From positions 96,001 through 160,000 of IMG/VR virus record IMGVR_UViG_3300033074_000233: a DNA stretch of 64,000 nt, one strand, 5' to 3'. The stretch comes from a virus. Its lineage: Duplodnaviria > Caudoviricetes. Below are positions 10,866 to 22,699 of the stretch, one piece after another. A program made the position numbers and the translations under genes. The notes beneath the pieces are model-generated. The model was not told where the DNA came from and made no database searches. It saw only the letters and a list, made by a program, of their open reading frames with translations. Position 1 is the stretch's first letter, and every line of letters starts with the position of its first letter.

Positions 10866-11498
10866 ATGGCTAAGGAACTTGAAGTAAAAGACCTTAAGGA
10901 AGCCGATTACAATCCACGATGGATCAACGACAAACGGTTGAAGGCCCTGCAGAAGTCCATTGAGACCTTTGGTGATCTGTCGGGTGTTGTGTTTAACAGA
11001 CGTACCAAGCGCCTTGTTTCTGGTCACCAGCGACTCAAGACGGTACGTGACAAGAAGACTCGCATCGTTACCAAGCCATATAGCGACAAGTACGGTACCG
11101 TTGCTATTGGTCACATCGAGGTCAAGGATAAGAAAGGCGTCATCCAGATTCCATACCGTGAAGTAGACTGGGACGACAAGAAGATGGAGATGGCTGCCAA
11201 CATTGCAGCCAATGCTCAAGGTGGTCAGTTTGACAACAAGAAACTCGGCAAGGTTCTCGCCAAGTTGTCCAACGCTACCTTCGATGTTGAACTCGTAGGC
11301 CTTGATGACGTTACTGTCAAGACCCTTGTAAACGACTTTGAGAAGGCCTCAGGTGTTGTAGACGCAAAGGGTAAGCCAGTTGCTTCTGGCAAAGACAAGG
11401 GTAAGAGCAGCAAGTCCGAAGGCTTCCAGAAGATCAGTCCTGAGGACATGGAAGAAGACTTCGAGCACGAATGCCCGAAATGTAATTACAAGTGGTAG
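10866..11498 (+). CDS. ParB/Srx N-terminal-domain protein with C-terminal Zn ribbon
   Basis: ADYNPR...SIETFG...LVSGHQRL; CPKCNYKW. Confidence 0.85.
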   Translation: MAKELEVKDLKEADYNPRWINDKRLKALQKSIETFGDLSGVVFNRRTKRLVSGHQRLKTVRDKKTRIVTKPYSDKYGTVAIGHIEVKDKKGVIQIPYREVDWDDKKMEMAANIAANAQGGQFDNKKLGKVLAKLSNATFDVELVGLDDVTVKTLVNDFEKASGVVDAKGKPVASGKDKGKSSKSEGFQKISPEDMEEDFEHECPKCNYKW

Positions 11499-11506
11499 GT
11501 AACCGT

Positions 11507-12484
11507 ATGAAGTTTACTATGGCGAATGTCAACGCCAAGAAAAAGAAGTACACAGCCGTATCTACTTTCAGTGGCTGCGGTGGTTCGTCGCTTGGCTACA
11601 AGATGGCTGGCTTCAAGATGCTGTGGGCTAACGAGTTCATTCCAGCAGCACAGGATACCTATGAAGCCAATCACATAGGTACCTATCTGGACAAGCGCGA
11701 CATTCGCAAAGTAAAGCCAGAAGAAATCCTCAAGAAAATCGGCCTAAAGAAAGGCGAACTCGACCTGTTCGACGGTTCCCCACCATGCTCGGCCTTCAGT
11801 ACAGCAGGTGCGCGTGACAAAGGCTGGGGTACTGTAAAGAAGTATTCAGACTCCAAGCAGCGTGTGGATGACTTGTTCTATGAGTACATCCGCATTCTCA
11901 AGGGTCTACAGCCCAAAGTATTCGTAGCCGAGAACGTACCAGGTCTTGCGTCTGGTAAAGCCAAGGGGTATTTCGTAGAGATATTCCGTCTTCTCCAGGG
12001 TGCAGGTTACGTTGTAGAGGCCCGCATTCTGGATGCGTCACAACTGGGTGTACCGCAGGCGCGTAAGCGTCTGATCTTCGTTGGGGTACGCAAAGACCTG
12101 AAAATGAAGCCAGTGTTTCCGCAGCCCTTGTCCCGAGTAATTTCGGTCAATGACGTATGCCCAAACATCGCCTACATTAAGACCAAGAAAGACGGTCAGA
12201 TGAAGTACGTGCCTGCGAACATTCCTTCCCCTACCATTACGGCGAGCGATAGCACCAACTCGGAGACAGCCCAGTTCTCCTGCGGTGGCTTTATCGAAAC
12301 CCAAGATGGAGAGCAGCGCAAGTACAAGATCAGCGAACTCAAGAAGATTTTTACCTTCCCACCTGACTTTGAACTCACTGGTAAGTTTGAGCAGAAGTGG
12401 GAACGTCTAGGTAGATCAGTTCCGCCCATGTTCATGTATCATGTGGCCAAGACAATCGGCAAAGAAATTCTGGATAAACTATAA
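11507..12484 (+). CDS. C5-cytosine DNA methyltransferase family protein, probable carboxymethyltransferase
   Basis: Motifs I FSGCGG, IV GSPPC, VI ENV, VIII QARKR; motif X GRSVPP (Asn replaced by Arg). Confidence 0.9.
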   Translation: MKFTMANVNAKKKKYTAVSTFSGCGGSSLGYKMAGFKMLWANEFIPAAQDTYEANHIGTYLDKRDIRKVKPEEILKKIGLKKGELDLFDGSPPCSAFSTAGARDKGWGTVKKYSDSKQRVDDLFYEYIRILKGLQPKVFVAENVPGLASGKAKGYFVEIFRLLQGAGYVVEARILDASQLGVPQARKRLIFVGVRKDLKMKPVFPQPLSRVISVNDVCPNIAYIKTKKDGQMKYVPANIPSPTITASDSTNSETAQFSCGGFIETQDGEQRKYKISELKKIFTFPPDFELTGKFEQKWERLGRSVPPMFMYHVAKTIGKEILDKL

Positions 12485-12494
12485 GGAGAACTCC

Positions 12495-13547
12495 ATGAAC
12501 ATTAAGCGTCCGTTCCTCATGTACGTCGGCAACACCTCAGTTCTAGTAGAAATCAAAACGGCTGCTGGTGTTATTGAGTGGTGTCCAGAAGACGTTGTTG
12601 GTGTGTACACAACAGGTCCTGACGCGCTTACGTTTGGTAAGCCTGTTATCAATGACTTCAATGCCGCAGTGGCTGCTGGCGCCAAGACCTTTGTGGTTGG
12701 CTCTTCACCTACGAGTGGTATGATCGACGACTCGTGGATTCAGATGTTCTTCAATGCAATGGACGCTGGTCTGGACATTGCCTGTGGTCTACATGAAAAA
12801 CTCAACGACATTTCCTTCTTGGTAGACTATGCTAGAAAGGCAGGCGTAGTTATGCACGACTTCCGTCACCGTGAGGACGTGTACCCGAAAGGCACAGGCA
12901 TGAAGCGCCCTGGTATGCGTCTACTCACGGTAGGTACGGACTGTGCTTGCGGTAAGAAGTTCACTGCCATATCCATTGCGCGTGAGTGCAAGAAGCGTGG
13001 GCTTGCAGCCGACTTCCGTAGTACAGGACAAACTGGCTACCTGATTTCGTCTAGCGGCATTAACAACGACACGATTCCTGCTGACTTCCTTTCGGGTGCT
13101 GCTGAGTGGCTGTCGCCTGCGAACGCACCTGATCACTGGGATGTTATCGAGGGGCAAGGCGCTCTTTTTCATCCAGCCTATGCTGGAGGCAGTCTGTCCC
13201 TGCTTATGGGCAGTCAGCCCGACCTCATCGTTCTCTGCCATGATCCTGCGCGTGAGAAAGTACGTGGCCCAAAAGGCATGGACTTCAAGTTGATGTCCCT
13301 GGAAGAGGAGATCGAAGGCAATCTCCTCATGGGTAGTCGCACTAATCCAAAGATTCGACTTGGTGCTATCTCCATAAACGGTCGCTACGCTTTTCCTGAG
13401 GGCAATACGACTGCTTATCTGGATTACAAGAATGGGTTGATGGAACGCTTCGGCGTTCCTGTGTTTGACCCCCTTGTAGATGGCGTGTCATCCATAGTTG
13501 ACGTTATGGAATGTAAGAGCATGACGGTAAACAATGAAAAAGCCTAA
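12495..13547 (+). CDS. DUF1611 / DgcN-like P-loop protein
   Basis: AAGGAG RBS; ACGLH, VGTDCACGKKFT, STGQTG, DFLSGAAE, IEGQG. Confidence 0.85.
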   Translation: MNIKRPFLMYVGNTSVLVEIKTAAGVIEWCPEDVVGVYTTGPDALTFGKPVINDFNAAVAAGAKTFVVGSSPTSGMIDDSWIQMFFNAMDAGLDIACGLHEKLNDISFLVDYARKAGVVMHDFRHREDVYPKGTGMKRPGMRLLTVGTDCACGKKFTAISIARECKKRGLAADFRSTGQTGYLISSSGINNDTIPADFLSGAAEWLSPANAPDHWDVIEGQGALFHPAYAGGSLSLLMGSQPDLIVLCHDPAREKVRGPKGMDFKLMSLEEEIEGNLLMGSRTNPKIRLGAISINGRYAFPEGNTTAYLDYKNGLMERFGVPVFDPLVDGVSSIVDVMECKSMTVNNEKA

Positions 13548-14397
13548 GAACGTACCCAAACCACCAGCGAACGTACACGATGCCTTGCTGGATGAGTTGC
13601 GCTTTGTGCGTGACTCTGGTAAGCGCGCGGCTGTATTCCTCAGCGGTGGCGTAGATAGCCACTCGGTCTTGTTTGCACTGATAGAACTGGGCGTTCCTGT
13701 TACCGCGTATTCATTTACGCTGGACACCCACGAGAGTCGTGACTTCAAGATTGCCAAGAAGACCTGTGAGACAATGCACGTTCCATTTGTGCCAATAGTC
13801 CTTTCGACCGACGTAGCCAAGTTGAAGAAGTACGTTATCTACGTCGTGAAGAAACTGGGTGCGTACAAGAAGGTGGACATTGAATGCCTGTGGCCTATGC
13901 TGTCTACGTTGAAGCAGGTCGAGGAGGAATTTGTCATTACGGCTACCAGTGCTGACAGTCACTTTGCTTTGTCCAAGAAAGCCTGTATGCACTACAAGGA
14001 CAAGGTGGACTACTACAGGACAATCGTTTTCAAGAAGGCGAATACGGGACAGCGCCTTCATATGAAAAGTGAGTGTGCGAAACTGGGTAAGACCTATTTC
14101 ACGCCTTACGATACCACCCGCATGTGCTCGGAGTTGTACGGATATACATGGGACGAATTAAATAAGCCCAAGCAGAAGAATCCTATTCGCATTGCCTTTC
14201 CTGATCAGTTTGAACGCTGTAAAGTGACTCAGCACACCAACCTGCAATTAGGCGATAGCGGCATTGCCAAACACTTCGAGAAGTTGCTTGAAACCGACTT
14301 AAACACCCGGAAATATAAGTCGGTTATCGGCGTTTATAACGAGTTGGCGCGCAAGTATCTTAAAGTGACAGAAACAGAGGAAAACGACGATGACTGA
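13534..14397 (+). CDS. Asparagine-synthetase-like PP-loop ATP-dependent amide ligase lacking a glutaminase domain
   Basis: FLSGGVDS PP-loop near the N-terminus, TATSADSHF; only 287 aa. Confidence 0.75.
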   Translation: MKKPKNVPKPPANVHDALLDELRFVRDSGKRAAVFLSGGVDSHSVLFALIELGVPVTAYSFTLDTHESRDFKIAKKTCETMHVPFVPIVLSTDVAKLKKYVIYVVKKLGAYKKVDIECLWPMLSTLKQVEEEFVITATSADSHFALSKKACMHYKDKVDYYRTIVFKKANTGQRLHMKSECAKLGKTYFTPYDTTRMCSELYGYTWDELNKPKQKNPIRIAFPDQFERCKVTQHTNLQLGDSGIAKHFEKLLETDLNTRKYKSVIGVYNELARKYLKVTETEENDDD

Positions 14398-15109
14398 CGA
14401 CAAAGATAGTGTTGTACCAGGAAATAAGTGGGAATTTGATGCAAGCGTTGCGGCCTGTTTCGATGACATGCTTTCACGCAGCATTCCTTCATACAAGATG
14501 ATGCGTCAGACCACATATGCCCTTGGTACCAACATCATCGGAAATATGACGGCCCCTAAAGTTGTTGACTTGGGTGCTTCGCGTGGTGAGGCTATTTGGG
14601 AGTTCGCCGCACGTTATCCGAGAGGTGATTTCTATGCCCTGGAGATTTCCGATCCAATGCTGGACGTAATGCGAAATCGCTTTCAAGGTCAGACCAACCT
14701 GCATGTATGGCGTGAAGACCTTCGCGTCTGCAACGTCCTGCGTGAGATCAAAAACACCACGGTCGTTCTGTCGATTCTGACTCTCCAGTTTATTCCTATC
14801 GAGTACCGTCAGGCCCTTGTGCAGACCGTATTCGACAACTTGGACAAGGGCGGCGCCTTCATCCTTGTAGAGAAGGTTCTTGGCAATACGCCTTCAATCA
14901 ACTCCAAGTTCGTAGAGGAATACTACGAGTTCAAGCGTTCCAATGGATATTCCTACGAGGATATCGAGCGCAAGAAGGCTTCTCTGGAAGGCGTGTTGGT
15001 TCCGATCACTGCGAAGTGGAACGAGGACATGCTTTACTCAGTGGGCTTCCGTCAAATTGACTGTTTCTATCGCCACCTGAACTTTGCTGGCTGGATCGCA
15101 ATCAAATGA
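14390..15109 (+). CDS. cmoA: CmoA-like carboxy-S-adenosylmethionine synthase
   Basis: WEFDASVAACFDDMLSRSIPSY, DLGASRG, LTLQF, ILVEK, FKRSNGYS...LEGVL, NFAGWIAIK follow CmoA along its length. Confidence 0.85.
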   Translation: MTDDKDSVVPGNKWEFDASVAACFDDMLSRSIPSYKMMRQTTYALGTNIIGNMTAPKVVDLGASRGEAIWEFAARYPRGDFYALEISDPMLDVMRNRFQGQTNLHVWREDLRVCNVLREIKNTTVVLSILTLQFIPIEYRQALVQTVFDNLDKGGAFILVEKVLGNTPSINSKFVEEYYEFKRSNGYSYEDIERKKASLEGVLVPITAKWNEDMLYSVGFRQIDCFYRHLNFAGWIAIK

Positions 15110-15549
15110 TGAATCCATACAAACACCTCCTTACCAAGATGAAGTATCTGGTAAATGAGGACAAACGAGTAGACGACGCCGAGAAGGCAGACTTTCAATG
15201 GAGTATGGTCTTCACCAGAGGACCAGTGAAGTTCATGATAGGCAAAGGTGGTGTCAATACCATCTTCTACATCATGGGAGACAAGCGTGAGGTTTGCTTC
15301 CCTGATGATGCCTTGAAACTCCTTGAAAAGAAGTCGCTCGACAAGTACATTGCCTATGCGATCTATTCCAAGAAAAAGGAATTGGTTGCTGGGCCTTTCT
15401 TGTTTCACGATGATGCGATGGCACTACGCGCAGGTAAAGGCCAGTTCTTTATTGGCATTAAGGCAAGTGGGAAACTTGTTCCACTCTATGCTGCGAAGCC
15501 TAACCTGTTCGACAAACTATCTTGGTCTCCTGTAGTAGAAAAGAAATAA
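15106..15549 (+). CDS. Hypothetical protein
   Basis: Coupled ORF, 147 aa. Confidence 0.55.
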   Translation: MMNPYKHLLTKMKYLVNEDKRVDDAEKADFQWSMVFTRGPVKFMIGKGGVNTIFYIMGDKREVCFPDDALKLLEKKSLDKYIAYAIYSKKKELVAGPFLFHDDAMALRAGKGQFFIGIKASGKLVPLYAAKPNLFDKLSWSPVVEKK

Positions 15550-15560
15550 CGAGGTGAAAC

Positions 15561-17036
15561 ATGCCTGCTCAACGCATTACATACCTAACAAGCAAACCGT
15601 TTACGCTTAGCCAACTGATGGCCAAGACTCCGCGTAACATCCAGTACAACGCGGATGACACTCGCATTAAGCAGGCACGCAAGATCATTGACAAGGATAC
15701 CAACCAGCCAGCAGTAGTAGCCGTTGTTTACTCGACGCACGATGCTGATGGTAATCCAACACGCAATCCAATTATGCACAAGTGCTACATCCTGAGCCTT
15801 GATGCAAACAGGAAGCCGATTAACCAGTGCCACGTTCACCTTTCCTGCGACTGCTTTACGGGAGACACGCGGGTTCTTACGCCGTCTGGTTGGAAAACTA
15901 TATACGAACTAGCCGAACCCCTAGAACTAGGTAAGTTCGAGACTGACTATATCGTCAACGGAAAAGTAGTAAAAGGTTCTGCACCCTTTTATAAGGGTAA
16001 GTCAAAGGTATGGGAAATAGCCTTAGATACAGGATTAAAGATTAAGGCCACGAAAAATCAGAAATTCCTAGTAACACGAAAAGATGGAATTCGTAAATGG
16101 AGAACTGTTAAGAATCTTTCTGTTGGTGACTGGCTTGTTCCTAATTCAACAGAAAACATACCAGAAGTAGATGTAACCAGTAAAGTCTATCAGGATGCAC
16201 ACCTAATAGGCGTGATAATGGGCGACGGAACTGTTTTCTCTAGTGGCTCTCCTGATTTACAACTGTATGGAGATAAACAAACTGAAATTTGGAGTCTCAT
16301 ACAAAAACATCCAGCCGTTAAGGGTAAAAAGGTTGTCCAGCGAGACGGAATACGGGTAGAATTTAATCATACTGGTATGGAGCTTTTCAGTAAATTTAAG
16401 TACGAAAACAAGAAGAATGTACTGTTGTCTTCTCCAGAGTCTATCTTTGGATTCTTGTCAGGTCTAACTAACGCAGATGGAAACTGCGGACGGAATGGTA
16501 TTGTAATTGACGGAGATCTATCTTACCTTAAAATTCTGTTAGACGAACTACTTGCTCTTGGGCTTGTTGGTCCTAAACTGTCCTTATCCGATACAAATCG
16601 TAAGGGCACTCTGACAAATTACGGTGAGAGAACAAAGGATATGTATACACTTGTTATACCTGTTCCGACTATAAGACTAATAAAAAAGAACTTGCTACTG
16701 ACAGAAAAACACCAGAAGAACCTAGAAAAACAAGAAAAAAAGAGGCCACAAAATCGCGTGCCTAAGACTAAAATTACAGGTATTACTTGTGTAGGTAAAA
16801 AGCATGTGTATGATATAACTGTACCTGAAGGCACCAGATTTGTGGCTGAGGGAGTTATAGTCCATAATTGCGCCTACTTCATGTACACGCTGGAGTATGC
16901 TCTTAACAAACGTGGCAATGCAGACATTATCTTCTCCAACGGAAAGCCTGCTGTGGTTCGTAATCCAAGCAACAAAGGCTTTCTGTGCAAGCACCTCTAC
17001 CATCTGGCTGAATCGCTTGTCTCCAGAGGTATGTGA
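15561..17036 (+). CDS. SWIM zinc-finger protein, intein-containing
   Basis: Spliced extein (~152 aa) reads SCD-CAYF...LCKHL (CxC...CxH). Confidence 0.75.
   Translation: MPAQRITYLTSKPFTLSQLMAKTPRNIQYNADDTRIKQARKIIDKDTNQPAVVAVVYSTHDADGNPTRNPIMHKCYILSLDANRKPINQCHVHLSCDCFTGDTRVLTPSGWKTIYELAEPLELGKFETDYIVNGKVVKGSAPFYKGKSKVWEIALDTGLKIKATKNQKFLVTRKDGIRKWRTVKNLSVGDWLVPNSTENIPEVDVTSKVYQDAHLIGVIMGDGTVFSSGSPDLQLYGDKQTEIWSLIQKHPAVKGKKVVQRDGIRVEFNHTGMELFSKFKYENKKNVLLSSPESIFGFLSGLTNADGNCGRNGIVIDGDLSYLKILLDELLALGLVGPKLSLSDTNRKGTLTNYGERTKDMYTLVIPVPTIRLIKKNLLLTEKHQKNLEKQEKKRPQNRVPKTKITGITCVGKKHVYDITVPEGTRFVAEGVIVHNCAYFMYTLEYALNKRGNADIIFSNGKPAVVRNPSNKGFLCKHLYHLAESLVSRGM
15852..16868 (+). mobile_element. Intein with LAGLIDADG homing endonuclease (339 aa)
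   Basis: CFTGDT start, IVHN|C end, LIGVIMGDG and LSGLTNADG motifs; AT-rich. Confidence 0.9.
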
Positions 17037-18098: not shown

Positions 18099-19613
18099 AT
18101 GACACGCGCAAAGTTCAATACGAAAAAGACGTTTCAAGATTCCAAACCGCGCACAGGCGGTGATGACAACAAGAAACTGGAAGATTTGGTAGACACTATC
18201 AAAATGCCAGAGAAGGAATACGTTTCGATGCGCCTTATTGGCCCAGCGATTCCGTATGCACAACACTGGATCGAGTTCCACTCGTCCAAAGGCAAGGACG
18301 TAAACATCCCGAAAATCTGTCTTGCGTTCGATCCTGATACGGAAGACTTTGATTCGTCCAAGAAGTGCCCGTATTGCGACAACGGCAACAAGGCTAGCGT
18401 AGCCTACCTGACCAACGCAATCATTCGTGATATTCAGGAGAATGAGCCTGCTAAGAAAGGCAAGATGACTGACAGTGAGAAGAAGACTGGCTTCAAGGAG
18501 AAATCCTCGAAGACTTGGACCCCTGTCAAAGTCGTGCGTATCACTTCGACGGTTGCGAGCAAGTTCCAGAACCTGTCCAACGCCAACAAGGTCAAGGACA
18601 AGAAGTCTGGCGAGACTGTTGCCAAGCCTCTCTCGGACGAGAAGTACGGTCGTGATATCCAGATGCTGTACGATTCCAAGGCAGCAGGCTCGGCCAAGTA
18701 CGACGTACAGAAGGGCGATGAGCGTACTCCTCTGACCGAAGAGGAGAGTGAATACCTTGTATGGAATATCGAAGGTCTGTTCGAGCCAGAAGACCTGTCG
18801 CGCGCCAAGCAAGAGGCTGCCAAGTTCTTCGGCAAAGGCGGCAAGAAAGGCGAAGACGCTGACTACGACGAAGAAGATGACACGCCAAAAGGCAAGAAAG
18901 GCAAGAAGGCGAAAGATGAGTACCTAGATAGCGATGAGGACGACGAGCCGAAAGCCAAGAAGGGCAAAAAGAGTAAGAAGCCTGTCGATAGCGACGAGGA
19001 CGATGCGGACTCGGACGATGACGCGGCTGATTCTGACGACGATGCAGATTCGGATGAAGACGAACCGAAGTCCAAGAAGAAGCCTGCGAAGAAAGGTAAG
19101 CCCGGCCTGAGCGCGAAAGATTCGGACGACGACGGTTTCAGCGATGAAGACGACGCTGATGACGAAGACGAAGACTCGGACGAAGACGAACCGAAGAGCA
19201 AGAAAGGCAAGAAGCCTGCAGCCAAGAAGGGTAAGAAAGCAGCAGACTCGGACGAAGACGAAGACGAAGACTCCGATGAAGACGCTGATGATTCGGATGA
19301 GGATGAAGACTCTGATGAAGATGAGCCGAAGTCCAAGAAGAAACCTGCGAAGAAAGGCAAGAAGGCCGCTGACTCTGACGAAGATGAAGATGAAGACTCC
19401 GATGAGGATGATCCCAGGGCAAAGAAAGGCAAGAAGCCAGCAAAGAAGGGTAAAAAGGCCGCTGACTCTGATGAGGACGACGTAGACCTCGACGATCTCG
19501 ATGAAGACGAAGAAGAGGACGAGCCGAAGTTCAAGAAAGGCAAGAAGGACAAGAAAGCCAAAGGTAAAAAGTCCAAGAAGGACGAAGACTCGGACGACGA
19601 TGTGCCTTTTTGA
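18099..19613 (+). CDS. Putative gp32-like ssDNA-binding protein with a very long charged repeat tail
   Basis: H...C...CPYC zinc motif; ends DDDVPF like the SSB C-terminal tip; upstream of recA. Confidence 0.7.
   Translation: MTRAKFNTKKTFQDSKPRTGGDDNKKLEDLVDTIKMPEKEYVSMRLIGPAIPYAQHWIEFHSSKGKDVNIPKICLAFDPDTEDFDSSKKCPYCDNGNKASVAYLTNAIIRDIQENEPAKKGKMTDSEKKTGFKEKSSKTWTPVKVVRITSTVASKFQNLSNANKVKDKKSGETVAKPLSDEKYGRDIQMLYDSKAAGSAKYDVQKGDERTPLTEEESEYLVWNIEGLFEPEDLSRAKQEAAKFFGKGGKKGEDADYDEEDDTPKGKKGKKAKDEYLDSDEDDEPKAKKGKKSKKPVDSDEDDADSDDDAADSDDDADSDEDEPKSKKKPAKKGKPGLSAKDSDDDGFSDEDDADDEDEDSDEDEPKSKKGKKPAAKKGKKAADSDEDEDEDSDEDADDSDEDEDSDEDEPKSKKKPAKKGKKAADSDEDEDEDSDEDDPRAKKGKKPAKKGKKAADSDEDDVDLDDLDEDEEEDEPKFKKGKKDKKAKGKKSKKDEDSDDDVPF
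18835..19610 (+). repeat. Low-complexity Lys/Asp-Glu block repeats (KKPAKKGKKAADSDEDED)
   Basis: Multiple imperfect tandem copies visible in DNA and protein. Confidence 0.85.
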
Positions 19614-20029
19614 TAATCCTTAAGGGTAAAGAAAAGTGGCGTAAAGTTCCATCTATGCCTAATTTGGAAGCCTCTAATTACGGTAGGATTCGTGTTATTC
19701 CCTACCAGAAACAGATGCCGAATGGTGGCCTTAGGTGGTACGGAGGATTTCCTACTAAAGGACAGTGGGGAGGCTCTCGGTATATTTACGTCATAAAGCA
19801 GCACACCTACAAAGTAGCGCGCTTAGTGTGCGAAGCCTTCAATGGAAAGAGTCCGAAAGGCTATGTGTGTATGCACTTGGACGAGAACGTGAGAAACAAT
19901 AAGCCTAGTAACCTGCGCTGGGGAACTCAAAAAGAGAACCTCAATGCTCCTGGGTTTATTGCGTATTGCAAGTCTCGAACAGGCGAGAATAGCCCTCTTA
20001 TAAAGGGAATGCGAAAGCGTAATAAGTAG
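19610..20029 (+). CDS. NUMOD4-HNH homing endonuclease
   Basis: EKWRKVP...EASNYGRIR; VARLV...CMHLDENVRNNKPSNLRWGTQKEN. Confidence 0.85.
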   Translation: MIILKGKEKWRKVPSMPNLEASNYGRIRVIPYQKQMPNGGLRWYGGFPTKGQWGGSRYIYVIKQHTYKVARLVCEAFNGKSPKGYVCMHLDENVRNNKPSNLRWGTQKENLNAPGFIAYCKSRTGENSPLIKGMRKRNK

Positions 20030-20095
20030 TTTCTCCCGTGCGCGTATTTGGAGAGTGGCCTGAACACCCACTCTCCTTCTTTTCACGAGGTACAC

Positions 20096-22699
20096 ATGGC
20101 AATTAAGAAAGGTAAGGACGTAAAAGAGAAGAAGGTCAAGAAGACCAAGGAAAAGCCAGAGAAGAAAGGCAAGAAGGCGAAAGCCGAGAAAGAACCCAAG
20201 GTCAAGAAAGGCAAGAAAGGCCGAGTGATTGATGGTGACACTGGCGAGGTCCTGGATGACGATGACGGCATTGCGCTTCGTGCTCACGCTGCGTCCGAAG
20301 ACATGGATGCGATGCTTGACGCAATCGAGAAGGACGTTGGTATTGTTGCCGTTACCGCAGGTAGTCGTAACACAACCAGCACTGGCCTGCTTTCGCTTGA
20401 CCTGATGCTTTGTGGTGGCCTTGTCTCTGGTGGCTGGTATACCTTCTTCGGCGGTGAGCAATCGTCTAAGTCCACGCTGGCGATGACACAGATCGCACGT
20501 GCGGCTATGCAAGGCAAGATTCCGATCCTGTTGTACTTCGACTTCGAGGGTTCACTCTCCGAGTCGCTGGACTACATGCTGAGTATTGCACGGGCACAAG
20601 GTTTCAAGGGTAACTTGCAAGACCTCTTTGGCATTCAAGACCCGAAGACGGGCAAGTACGTCAAGAAGCCGTTGATTCGTCGGTATCAGGAAAGCGTTGC
20701 CGAGCGTTTCTTCGACCTCGTTGCCAAGCTGGAGCGTAGTCTGCCGGACAAACTCTATCGCAACGAAAAGTGGTGGTACGTTTACGAACATACCAAGGTC
20801 AATATCTCCAAGTACAGCGCCATCTCGGATAAGCAGTTGTACAAGCAGACTGGCAAACTCTGGGTTGAGACTGACAACGGCCACCCACAGGCTATGATAG
20901 TGGTTGACTCCTATCCGGCAATGCTTCCAGAGCGTCTGGATGAGGATGATGCTGGTGCGGGTATGGCTGCACAGGCCCGTATGTTCTCGGACAACATTAA
21001 GCGCGTCAAAGGCAAAATGTCGTCCAAGCGCATTGTAATCATGGGCGTGAACCAGTTGCGTAAAGCACCTATGGTTAAGTACGGCTGTCTACACGGAGAT
21101 ACCCAGATTCCGTTCGTAGATGGTACGTCGCACAGCATTAAGTCTATCGTGGAGCAAAAGATTGAAGGTGAGGTCTGGTCTCTAAACGAGGACACGGACA
21201 AGATAGAGCCTGCAAAGATTACAGGCTGGTTTAACAACGGAGAGGTAGACAAAAAATCGGACTGGATTACGATTACTACCACTAACGTAGTAGAGACACC
21301 CAATGGTGTTGCCTCTGTTACGGTTACGCCTGACCACAAAATCCTTACCCGACGTGGATGGAAAGCCGCGCGTAAGTTGAAAGTTGGCGATAAAGTCCTG
21401 AGTAAGTACGCATCTATCTACGAGGGAGAAATGCGCTCGGTGCTTGCTGGTGTCCTAGCTGGGGACTCTTGTATTGTTGGTGATTGCAGGAATAGTCACC
21501 TTAGACTTCAAGACTCGCAGAATGCCGAGTACGTTGCTTGGAAGCGCGACCTGTTGAAGGACGTTCTATCCTTCAACTTGCGCGGAACTAAGAAGCAAAC
21601 TTGGATTTCCAACAGGTATTACCAGTTGTCCAAGTTGAAAGAAAAACTCGGAGAGCGTGACCCAACTAAGTTCGCTAACGTGTTTGATGCCCGCAGCCTT
21701 GCTATTTTCTACATGGATGACGGTCATTTCAGGTCTGAGAGGAACACAAGTAGTATTTGTATCGGTCGTTTTAAAGGTAAAGAAAAACTTGAGCAGGTAG
21801 CAGAAATGTTGTCTGAAAAGTTCTGTGTGTCTCCAGTAGTTCGCGGCAAAAACCTTATGTTTTCTGCCGAGGATACGCGAGTTATGCACAGTCTAATTGC
21901 CAAGTATGTGCCAGAGCCTATGCAGTACAAACTTCTTCCTGAGTACAGGGGCAAGTATAAGGCGCATAAACTCAAGGCAAAAATCTCTACCAAGAACATC
22001 TGGTGTGAGATAAGTTCCATAGACAAAGGCTCAGACAGGAAGTTCAGGTCTAGGACGAAATACGACATTGAAGTGGCTAGCCATAGTAACTATATGGCGG
22101 GTAACGTAGCCAACGGATTCATTGTCCATAATTCGCCGGAATATGAGCCCGGAGGGGAGGCTGTCAAGTTCTTCTCGGACGTTCGTATCCGTATGGCCTC
22201 GCGTTCAGTTCTGGGTGGCACAGGTCAGATCGAGGAAGAACCGTCAGTAGAGAAACCGGGTGGCAAGGACGTGTACCGTTACGTCAACATGCGCGCAGCC
22301 AAGAACAAGTTGTCTGTACCGAACCTTGAAGGCTGGGCCCGTATCTGGGTGCGTGATGCCTACGGTAAAGCGCGTGGCTACGATCCGGTGTTCGATACCT
22401 TCACCTTCCTCAAGGAACTGAAACTGATTTCGGGTACCAAGAAAAACCTCGTTATCAAGTTGAAGGAGTTTGAAGGCAGCAAAGGCCTGACGTGGGCACA
22501 GTTCAAGATGCTGTGCATTGGCGAAAAGAAAATGGTGTTGCAGGTATTCAAGGACGCCAAGATCAAAGCCAAGCCGTTCAAACTGCGTGAGCGCCTGTTC
22601 AAGATGGTGTCTACGGGTAAGGCGACTGAGACCTACTTTGCTGCGCTTGCTGATGGCAGTGGCAAAGACAAGGACGATGAGGCACCGAGCGATGAATGA
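20096..22699 (+). CDS. recA: RecA/UvsX-like recombinase, intein-containing
   Basis: TGLLSLDL, GGEQSSKST, IVVDS, QARMFS, VNQLR, YG|SPEYEPGG, KNKL. Confidence 0.9.
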   Translation: MAIKKGKDVKEKKVKKTKEKPEKKGKKAKAEKEPKVKKGKKGRVIDGDTGEVLDDDDGIALRAHAASEDMDAMLDAIEKDVGIVAVTAGSRNTTSTGLLSLDLMLCGGLVSGGWYTFFGGEQSSKSTLAMTQIARAAMQGKIPILLYFDFEGSLSESLDYMLSIARAQGFKGNLQDLFGIQDPKTGKYVKKPLIRRYQESVAERFFDLVAKLERSLPDKLYRNEKWWYVYEHTKVNISKYSAISDKQLYKQTGKLWVETDNGHPQAMIVVDSYPAMLPERLDEDDAGAGMAAQARMFSDNIKRVKGKMSSKRIVIMGVNQLRKAPMVKYGCLHGDTQIPFVDGTSHSIKSIVEQKIEGEVWSLNEDTDKIEPAKITGWFNNGEVDKKSDWITITTTNVVETPNGVASVTVTPDHKILTRRGWKAARKLKVGDKVLSKYASIYEGEMRSVLAGVLAGDSCIVGDCRNSHLRLQDSQNAEYVAWKRDLLKDVLSFNLRGTKKQTWISNRYYQLSKLKEKLGERDPTKFANVFDARSLAIFYMDDGHFRSERNTSSICIGRFKGKEKLEQVAEMLSEKFCVSPVVRGKNLMFSAEDTRVMHSLIAKYVPEPMQYKLLPEYRGKYKAHKLKAKISTKNIWCEISSIDKGSDRKFRSRTKYDIEVASHSNYMAGNVANGFIVHNSPEYEPGGEAVKFFSDVRIRMASRSVLGGTGQIEEEPSVEKPGGKDVYRYVNMRAAKNKLSVPNLEGWARIWVRDAYGKARGYDPVFDTFTFLKELKLISGTKKNLVIKLKEFEGSKGLTWAQFKMLCIGEKKMVLQVFKDAKIKAKPFKLRERLFKMVSTGKATETYFAALADGSGKDKDDEAPSDE
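21086..22132 (+). mobile_element. Intein with LAGLIDADG endonuclease (349 aa) in RecA loop L2
   Basis: CLHGDT start, TPDH block B, LAGVLAGD and FYMDDG, IVHN|S end. Confidence 0.9.

Follow-up and report, generated by a model that had tools for sequence, protein, structure and literature searches.

A DUF1611 gene (positions 12495 to 13547, + strand) lies among DNA modification genes in the window analyzed here, a stretch of 64,000 nucleotides (nt) from a jumbo-phage record of IMG/VR that is 215,992 bp long and estimated to be 84% complete. We propose that its product is a recruited fourth enzyme of a CmoA/CmoX/CmoY operon, namely, a soluble acyl-coenzyme A (acyl-CoA) N-acyltransferase that would prepare an amine for coupling by CmoY to 5-carboxymethylcytosine (5cxmC). 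To this reading, which is built on sequence comparison, we assign a probability of roughly 0.45, and a much smaller one to any particular acceptor substrate. The DNA of this phage probably carries an undescribed modified base.

The three other enzymes have counterparts in Synechococcus phage S-B43, where CmoA makes carboxy-S-adenosylmethionine (carboxy-SAM), CmoX writes 5cxmC, and CmoY, with ATP, ligates glycine to give 5-glycylcarboxymethylcytosine (Yang et al., Nat Commun, December 2025; PMC12783734). The association of ParBc with CmoX was reported in the same work, whose authors consider it probable that the ligases of other clusters use amines not yet known (PMC12783734). The window resembles the S-B43 system in having the same three enzymes adjacent, a CmoX with the SPPC motif and the carboxylate-binding Arg, a PP-loop CmoY that lacks a glutaminase domain, and a ParB-like gene. 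With its CmoX motifs, adjacent CmoA, and adjacent AsnB-type ligase, the window operon is, by sequence, of the CmoA/CmoX/CmoY 5cxmC kind. It differs from the S-B43 system in the presence of DUF1611 between CmoX and CmoY. DUF1611 is not mentioned in the S-B43 paper (0 occurrences in PMC12783734), and a literature search revealed no other paper linking DUF1611 to phage DNA modification. This bears out the preliminary description of this DNA, which regarded the gene as the part of the system most likely to be undescribed.

Fold and clade of the DUF1611 protein

The true start of the gene is the ATG at 12495, located 6 nt downstream of a Shine-Dalgarno sequence, AAGGAG (12483 to 12488, + strand, read from the sequence), and separated by 10 nt from the stop codon of CmoX (TAA, 12482 to 12484); the program-made list of open reading frames had given 12441 to 13547. 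Given this placement of the Shine-Dalgarno sequence and the ATG, the coordinates 12495 to 13547 and the length of 350 amino acids (aa) in the preliminary description are right. DgcA, the partner of DgcN, is an N-acetyl-D-glutamate racemase of the enolase superfamily. Neither the 216-kb phage record nor any of three related phage genomes was found to contain a gene of this type (MR_MLE), which, together with the Pfam and NCBIfam matches and the assignments of the flanking genes, agrees with the earlier account of a complete DUF1611 gene between the methyltransferase and the amide ligase, with DgcA absent.

The DgcN of Pseudoalteromonas sp. CF6-2 is said to have been identified as a D-glutamate N-acetyltransferase by Yu et al. 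in the ISME J in 2023. According to the titles of the PDB and NCBIfam entries, the conversion of acetyl-CoA and D-glutamate to N-acetyl-D-glutamate is the established reaction of the family. The window protein contains both Pfam domains of this family (DUF1611_C, PF07755, E 6.6e-55; DUF1611_N, PF17396, E 5.9e-16). It aligns end to end with the NCBIfam DgcN model NF041892 (1 to 325 of 326) at 355.4 bits, which is under the equivalog cut-off of 480 bits, and has a full-length match to PDB 7XRJ (DgcN; phmmer E 3.5e-72), being ∼47% identical to characterized DgcN. From a 60-sequence alignment, AlphaFold2 (AF2) gave a model with a mean predicted local distance difference test score (pLDDT) of 95.2. 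Its top Foldseek match is 7XRJ, “N-acetyltransferase DgcN” (E 1e-37; template modeling [TM] scores of 0.82/0.86), followed by 2OBN and 2G0T, which are structural-genomics DUF1611 entries. Outside the family, Foldseek gave only partial-domain matches, to the succinyl-CoA synthetase/ACD CoA-binding domain, Mur ligases, and cyclic-DPG synthetase. By these comparisons, the protein combines two domains, a Rossmann domain resembling those that bind CoA and a P-loop domain resembling BioD.

All of the family-invariant columns of a 60-member alignment are kept by the window protein (43/43). These include the BioD-like P-loop GxDxxxGK (here GTDCxxGK), FRxTGQTG, DF, HW, and EGQG, as well as H226, D243, C248, R253, and N284. 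Because none of these columns is lost, we take the protein to be catalytically competent. The possibility of a pseudogene or inert hitchhiker was rejected in view of the intact open reading frame, the strong Shine-Dalgarno sequence, and the presence of all invariant residues. The protein thus resembles the DgcN of 7XRJ in its two-domain fold and in the GTDCxxGK, TGQTG, EGQG, and HxxxxxxxxxxxxxxxxD/C/R motifs; the P-loop noted earlier for the family is thus among the motifs kept. It differs from DgcN in lying outside the bacterial clade, in carrying clade substitutions, and in having CmoY instead of DgcA as its partner gene.

The position outside the bacterial clade was obtained from trees of 128 sequences (FastTree) and 47 sequences (IQ-TREE). 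The branch that parts bacterial DgcN from the group with all phage proteins has a Shimodaira-Hasegawa (SH)-like support of 100 in the former and an SH approximate likelihood ratio test (SH-aLRT) support of 99 in the latter. On the bacterial side stand DgcN proteins with or without a nearby DgcA; on the phage side stand the window protein, its 96%-identical metagenomic twin, the Erwinia and Dickeya phage proteins, and 20 metagenomic proteins.

The phage side is marked by the substitutions V123F, Y156F, A190N, A193T, V232G, and G235S, at positions that are 86 to 100% conserved in the bacterial group. Y156F lies two residues past the P-loop lysines, and V232G and G235S come directly after EGQG...HP. 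A190N and A193T turn G-[IV]-A-x-D-A into G-I-N-N-D-T beside the invariant D192, and the resulting G-x-x-N-D-T motif is found in 0 of 80 bacterial genome loci. The window phage has extra changes at basic residues conserved in bacterial DgcN (H238M, R281S, and R328V), and the Alexandravirus proteins have lost the otherwise invariant R175 and HWD motif (R175C, W215I, and D216Y). This pattern appears to indicate a changed substrate in the phage-type proteins, with a cofactor machinery that appears to be unchanged.

With a score under the cut-off, a place outside the DgcN clade, and no DgcA partner, the window protein belongs to the DUF1611/DgcN family and is not a DgcN equivalog. The sub-cut-off score, the clade placement, the substitutions, and the CmoY partner together suggest that its substrate is probably not D-glutamate.

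Linkage of DUF1611 to phage cmo genes

Linkage was assessed for the clade members of known context, which are the window, the loci L195, L199, L200, and L221, and 34 GenBank phage records; L195 is the sole context for the group of the 20 metagenomic members. DUF1611 precedes CmoY directly in the window, in the four loci, and in 34/34 of the GenBank records, with an Alr-like gene standing between the two in 12 of the 34. This position is kept through at least five arrangements of the other genes, and the orders seen (N, DUF1611; A, X, and Y, the respective Cmo proteins) are X-N-Y-A, X-A-N-Y, A-N-Y, and A-420aa-N-Alr-Y.

The 34 records were found among 50,697 phage records, and all are Erwinia or Dickeya jumbo phages of the Alexandravirus type, in each of which the ligase just downstream is of the CmoY type and a CmoA-like gene lies upstream (34/34). 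Like the window, these clusters (AD1_016 to AD1_018 in Dickeya phage AD1) contain a CmoA-DUF1611-CmoY trio, with DUF1611 proteins that are 40 to 47% identical and belong to the same side of the tree. Unlike the window, they have the order A-N-Y and a remote CmoX, and their DUF1611 is annotated as hypothetical or as DUF1611 alone. Day et al. (2018; PMC6143709) described AD1_017, the DUF1611 protein, as found in AD1 alone; genes for the methyltransferase, asparagine synthase, and cytosine methylase are, in their account, common to AD1 and Y3 and absent from JA11.

Further relatives came from pattern scans. A DNA-pattern scan with the clade signature gave three metagenome contigs with a relative, and DUF1611 is followed by CmoY in 3/3. 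The L195 DUF1611 is the protein that groups with the 20 metagenomic proteins, and its CmoY is 57% identical to that of the window. A P-loop pattern scan of IMG/VR yielded a further, fourth jumbo-phage lineage, L221, of 261.8 kb, in which the genes run ParB-CmoX-121aa-CmoA-DUF1611-CmoY. An alignment-based scan of IMG/VR returned nine Alexandravirus-like genomes alone. No near relative of the cluster was found by megablast against the phage records, a single-protein scan of IMG/VR gave no match, and a scan of IMG/VR with canonical DgcN motifs found no relative.

No phage-type DUF1611 was found outside a cmo cluster when 50,697 phage records and 2.9 million contigs of IMG/VR were searched, and the clade is so far known solely beside phage cmo genes. 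The preliminary description had considered that phage homologs might usually be unlinked to the methyltransferase and cmoA genes; the opposite was found, that is, a consistent linkage to the amide ligase and to CmoA. A distant DUF1611 (34% identity, 382 aa), also returned by the P-loop pattern scan, lies at the edge of the predicted proviruses in seven contigs (L206, L209, L210, L212, L214, L218, and L219), beside the Na+/H+ antiporter NhaA and UmuD/UmuC. It is most likely host flank mistakenly taken into the viral prediction, and was not accepted as being of phage origin.

Of 80 bacterial loci, 61 have a DgcA-like gene at most 6 kb from DgcN, usually less than 100 bp downstream, and a relative of CmoA, CmoX, or CmoY was found near DgcN in 0 of the 80. 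Next to the phage DUF1611, CmoY takes the place that in bacteria belongs to DgcA, the enzyme that consumes the product of DgcN. Among 80 viral CmoY loci, CmoX adjoins CmoY in 76, and DUF1611 is present in one, an Alexandravirus, which makes DUF1611 a rare add-on to a common cmo system.

These observations bear on whether the gene serves DNA modification at all. A true D-glutamate or D-amino-acid N-acetyltransferase, which happens to lie in a variable region of the genome, could instead drain a peptidoglycan precursor or detoxify D-amino acids during takeover of the host. The ∼47% identity to DgcN, the complete set of invariant residues, and the acidic, soluble character of the enzyme would all fit this function, and the CmoA-CmoY region is indeed an insertion hot spot in related phages, where a 420-aa protein, a racemase, and the 2-oxoglutarate (2OG) oxygenase of Y3 are found. 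Such a function would not, however, account for a gene that never occurs in a phage away from the cmo cluster, whose position upstream of CmoY survives several rearrangements, and whose clade signature sets it apart from all bacterial DgcN sampled. We consider it quite unlikely.

Candidate reaction of DUF1611 and its relation to CmoY

The proteins of the window operon fall into two groups by charge. The members expected to bind DNA, namely, the ParB-like protein (isoelectric point [pI] 9.2), CmoX (9.6), CmoY (9.0), and a 147-aa protein (9.5), are basic, and CmoA (5.6) and DUF1611 (5.5, net charge of −7) are acidic. The homologs behave similarly, with a median pI of 9.1 for CmoY (76% above 8), 8.3 for CmoX, and 5.2 for CmoA (3% above 8). 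The phage-type DUF1611 proteins (n = 29) have pI values of 5.1 to 7.1 and net charges of −15 to 0. On statistical grounds only, charge thus favors a DUF1611 that, like CmoA, would supply a small-molecule co-substrate. The preliminary description had suggested that the protein acetylates, or otherwise supplies, the amine or amino acid for ligation; of this, the supplying role gains some support, as acidic charge fits a small-molecule supplier better than a DNA-acting enzyme.

The same data speak against the reverse order of events, in which CmoY would couple a diamine or diamino acid and DUF1611 would then N-acetylate the dangling amine on the DNA (+42 Da). Such a tailoring enzyme would meet DNA, yet the 29 phage-type proteins range from acidic to neutral, unlike CmoY, CmoX, and ParB, and a Pfam search detected no DNA-binding domain in the window protein. 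On the other hand, it would employ the same family chemistry and explain the same gene linkage, and a CmoY of ordinary type, as in the window, would be expected if the substrate of the ligase is not modified beforehand. Post-replicative tailoring is also the rule in thymidine hypermodification. On balance, we judge that this order is unlikely.

CmoY of the window (13534 to 14397, + strand; 287 aa; PF00733, E 7e-7; phrog_26038, E 3e-73) is an ATP-dependent amide ligase by its Asn_synthase/QueC-type PP-loop (PF00733 and PF06508), with no glutaminase domain. The CmoY gene begins within the DUF1611 gene, and the 14-nt overlap between its ATG and the DUF1611 stop codon can be read directly. In a tree, the ligase falls among 71 other CmoY-like sequences of viruses, and its identity is 32% to the S-B43-type ligase and 36 to 41% to the ligases of PaBG and Y3. 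The window and L195 ligases pair inside the PaBG/Y3/SNUABM_5 group, which lacks DUF1611, and the ligases of Alexandravirus are set apart on a long branch of their own (27% identical to the window CmoY), so that DUF1611 is attached to two ligase lineages. The window CmoY keeps SGGxDS, K148, K149, R219, and N236 of ordinary CmoYs; the Alexandravirus CmoY has the changes S42G, K149N, R219T, and N236G. The most diverged DUF1611 and the most diverged CmoY thus occur in the same phage group, and the window keeps both residue sets. This co-divergence would be expected if both proteins handle the same molecule.

Co-divergence, the translational coupling with CmoY, and the racemase of related phages could also reflect a direct partnership in which DUF1611 binds a D-amino acid, the acceptor of its ancestral acylation reaction, and presents it to the 5cxmC-adenylate made by CmoY. 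In such a condensation no acetyl-CoA would take part and the acyl group would be cytosin-5-yl-acetyl; chemically, this is a substituted acetyl group, and the product would be analogous to N-acetyl-D-glutamate. SpCmoY, however, ligates glycine unaided (PMC12783734). The P-loop and the CoA-type N-terminal domain of DUF1611 are fully conserved, which suggests that the cofactor site is still used, and no protein in which DUF1611 is fused to an Asn-synthase ligase was found, none of the four long DUF1611 proteins being so fused. Delivery of this kind therefore has, in our estimate, only a small probability.

The racemase is encoded by a shortened, Alr-like gene of 311 aa located between DUF1611 and CmoY in pEa_SNUABM_3 (L006:9008-9943) and in 11 other Erwinia phage records. 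The protein keeps the pyridoxal phosphate (PLP)-Lys motif VVKGNFYGHG and the catalytic-Tyr motif FGYGA. Because it is placed exactly between DUF1611 and CmoY, it provides independent evidence, at the level of sequence, that the module may handle a D-amino acid. In Vibrio ruber, a dgcN-dgcA pair (L119:3966-8845) has at its flanks genes for a class IV (D-amino-acid) aminotransferase and, in divergent orientation, for a full-length alanine racemase; the linkage of a racemase to DgcN is therefore also found in bacteria.

In the pathway that we favor, with DUF1611 as an N-acyltransferase upstream of CmoY, DUF1611 would act on a free metabolite and not on DNA. It would acylate an amino acid at one of its amino groups, in the simplest case with the acetyl group of acetyl-CoA as DgcN does, and CmoY would then join the acylated amino acid, via its remaining free amine, to the carboxyl group of 5cxmC. 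A second amino group, or another mode of action, is needed because N-acetylation of a mono-amino acid removes the sole amine available to CmoY. For the same reason, plain N-acetyl-D-glutamate, which has no free amine, was rejected as the substrate of CmoY. The acceptor would most likely be a diamino acid with a D-center, such as meso-diaminopimelate (at its D-center), D-lysine, or D-ornithine, drawn from host pools of peptidoglycan precursors or, in some relatives, provided by the phage racemase. The finished nucleobase would be an N-acyl-aminoacyl amide of 5cxmC rather than the published 5-glycyl derivative. The more specific form of this proposal, in which a lineage of D-amino-acid N-acyltransferases has become a DNA tailoring enzyme and the cytosines bear an N-acylated amino acid that is D-configured (or a diamino acid), is possible but doubtful.

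Several observations weigh against the proposed pathway. The product of the known reaction, N-acetyl-D-glutamate, has no amine, so a change of acceptor must be assumed. The window ligase is ordinary in type, being nearest to those of PaBG, Y3, and SNUABM_5 and keeping the basic residues; an unchanged alpha-amino-acid substrate would therefore fit, and an ordinary alpha-amino acid may still be accepted by this enzyme. Some CmoX proteins are acidic, and for this reason the argument from charge is statistical only. The 34 phage records amount in essence to one lineage, and the independent contexts number about five. In addition, a search of the phage's own genome found no Alr, Asp/Glu racemase, class IV aminotransferase, or GNAT gene.

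Neighboring genes, related phages, and implications

The genes of the cmo block of the window are on the same strand and overlap or are separated by gaps of at most 10 nt. The first encodes a ParB-N-like DNA-binding protein (10866 to 11498, + strand; 210 aa; phrog_620, “ParB-like partition protein,” E 6e-33), and the ParB-CmoX order is also found in phage PaBG and in L221. The CmoX-type DNA cytosine C5-carboxymethyltransferase follows (11492 to 12484, + strand; 330 aa; PF00145, E 6e-54). It contains SPPC (FDGSPPCSAF), ENV, and QxRxR, and the Asn of motif X is replaced by Arg (WERLGRSVPP; ERLGRSVPP at 12401 to 12427). SPPC and the carboxymethyl-binding Arg are the two criteria by which Yang et al. 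recognize CmoX (PMC12783734). Downstream of CmoY lies the carboxy-SAM synthase CmoA (14390 to 15109, + strand; 239 aa), which matches TIGR00740 over positions 13 to 239 of 239 (E 4.6e-40), with a score under the equivalog cut-off of 193 bits. Its identity to the CmoA of other cmo clusters is 24 to 53% (44% for Alexandravirus and 53% for L221).

The block continues with the basic 147-aa protein (15106 to 15549, + strand; phrog_23597, E 5e-17). In related jumbo phages, it accompanies the cluster whether or not DUF1611 is present. Weak homologs inside or next to cmo clusters are AD1_021 and PaBG gp307, the gene for which stands between those of CmoA and CmoY. Y3 gp023 and pEa_SNUABM_5 gp022 seem, from their size and location, to be counterparts. 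Possibly the 147-aa protein is a DNA-binding accessory of the cmo system that has yet to be described. Just past this block are a 491-aa protein with an intein splicing domain (15561 to 17036), an HNH/NUMOD4 homing-endonuclease gene (19610 to 20029), and a RecA-like 883-aa protein with an intein and a LAGLIDADG endonuclease (20048 to 22699). A scan for promoters and terminators gave no signal beyond the shuffled expectation.

The window phage and PaBG have in common a backbone of peptidase, ParB, CmoX, CmoA, an ∼150-aa basic protein, and CmoY. Pseudomonas phage PaBG and Erwinia phages Y3 and pEa_SNUABM_5, which share this backbone and have the nearest CmoY relatives of the window, carry CmoA and CmoY but no DUF1611, and are thus natural controls. 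In Y3, gp020 (L102:6077-6715), two genes after CmoY, is annotated as a 2OG-Fe(II) oxygenase and could be an alternative tailoring enzyme for the same carboxyl handle. Many Alexandravirus-like clusters and one metagenome contig encode a protein of 420 to 423 aa between CmoA and DUF1611 (L006:6718-7980; L002:5718-6980; L200:6194-7465, − strand), which falls into no family and whose sole matches are faint ones to GT-B/glucosyltransferases (Pfam, E 0.12; PDB 9V0L, E 0.31). On the L200 contig (Ga0183099_1000908), a RimI/GNAT-like acetyltransferase of 302 aa (E 2e-10; L200:2709-3617, − strand) lies three genes downstream of DUF1611-CmoY. The Alexandravirus-type CmoX lies ∼17 kb from the A-N-Y cluster and has an intein at the catalytic cysteine. 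In Dickeya phage AD1 (L014:118-2271; MH460463.1, ∼29.9 to 32.1 kb), an intein-like insert of ∼350 aa stands within SPPC (SPP|CFTEDT...VVHN|CKGF), and intein-bearing CmoX proteins, 717 to 725 aa long, also occur in Alexandra, pEa_SNUABM_13, and IMG/VR 3300011226. The carboxymethyl-binding Arg is kept in these proteins (WERLGRICVP).

Glycine is the single proven amine of the 5cxmC handle pathway, and a DgcN-type enzyme would be the first concrete lead to an unknown side chain. The enzyme suggests a chemistry of D-amino acids or diamino acids, for which no precedent is known in DNA modification, and, if the more specific proposal is true, the phage would contain the first DNA base derived from a D-amino acid. 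Related phages would then vary the side chain by means of a swappable racemase, GT-B-like protein, and 2OG oxygenase, giving rise to a family of undescribed bases built on 5cxmC. For the large DUF1611 family, with one characterized activity so far, this would be a second biological role. Natural controls are already in culture, since there are Erwinia and Dickeya phages that have the gene (AD1, Alexandra, and the pEa_SNUABM series) and phages that lack it (Y3 and PaBG). New adducts of this kind would bear on the resistance of phages to restriction and CRISPR and on the enzymatic functionalization of DNA.

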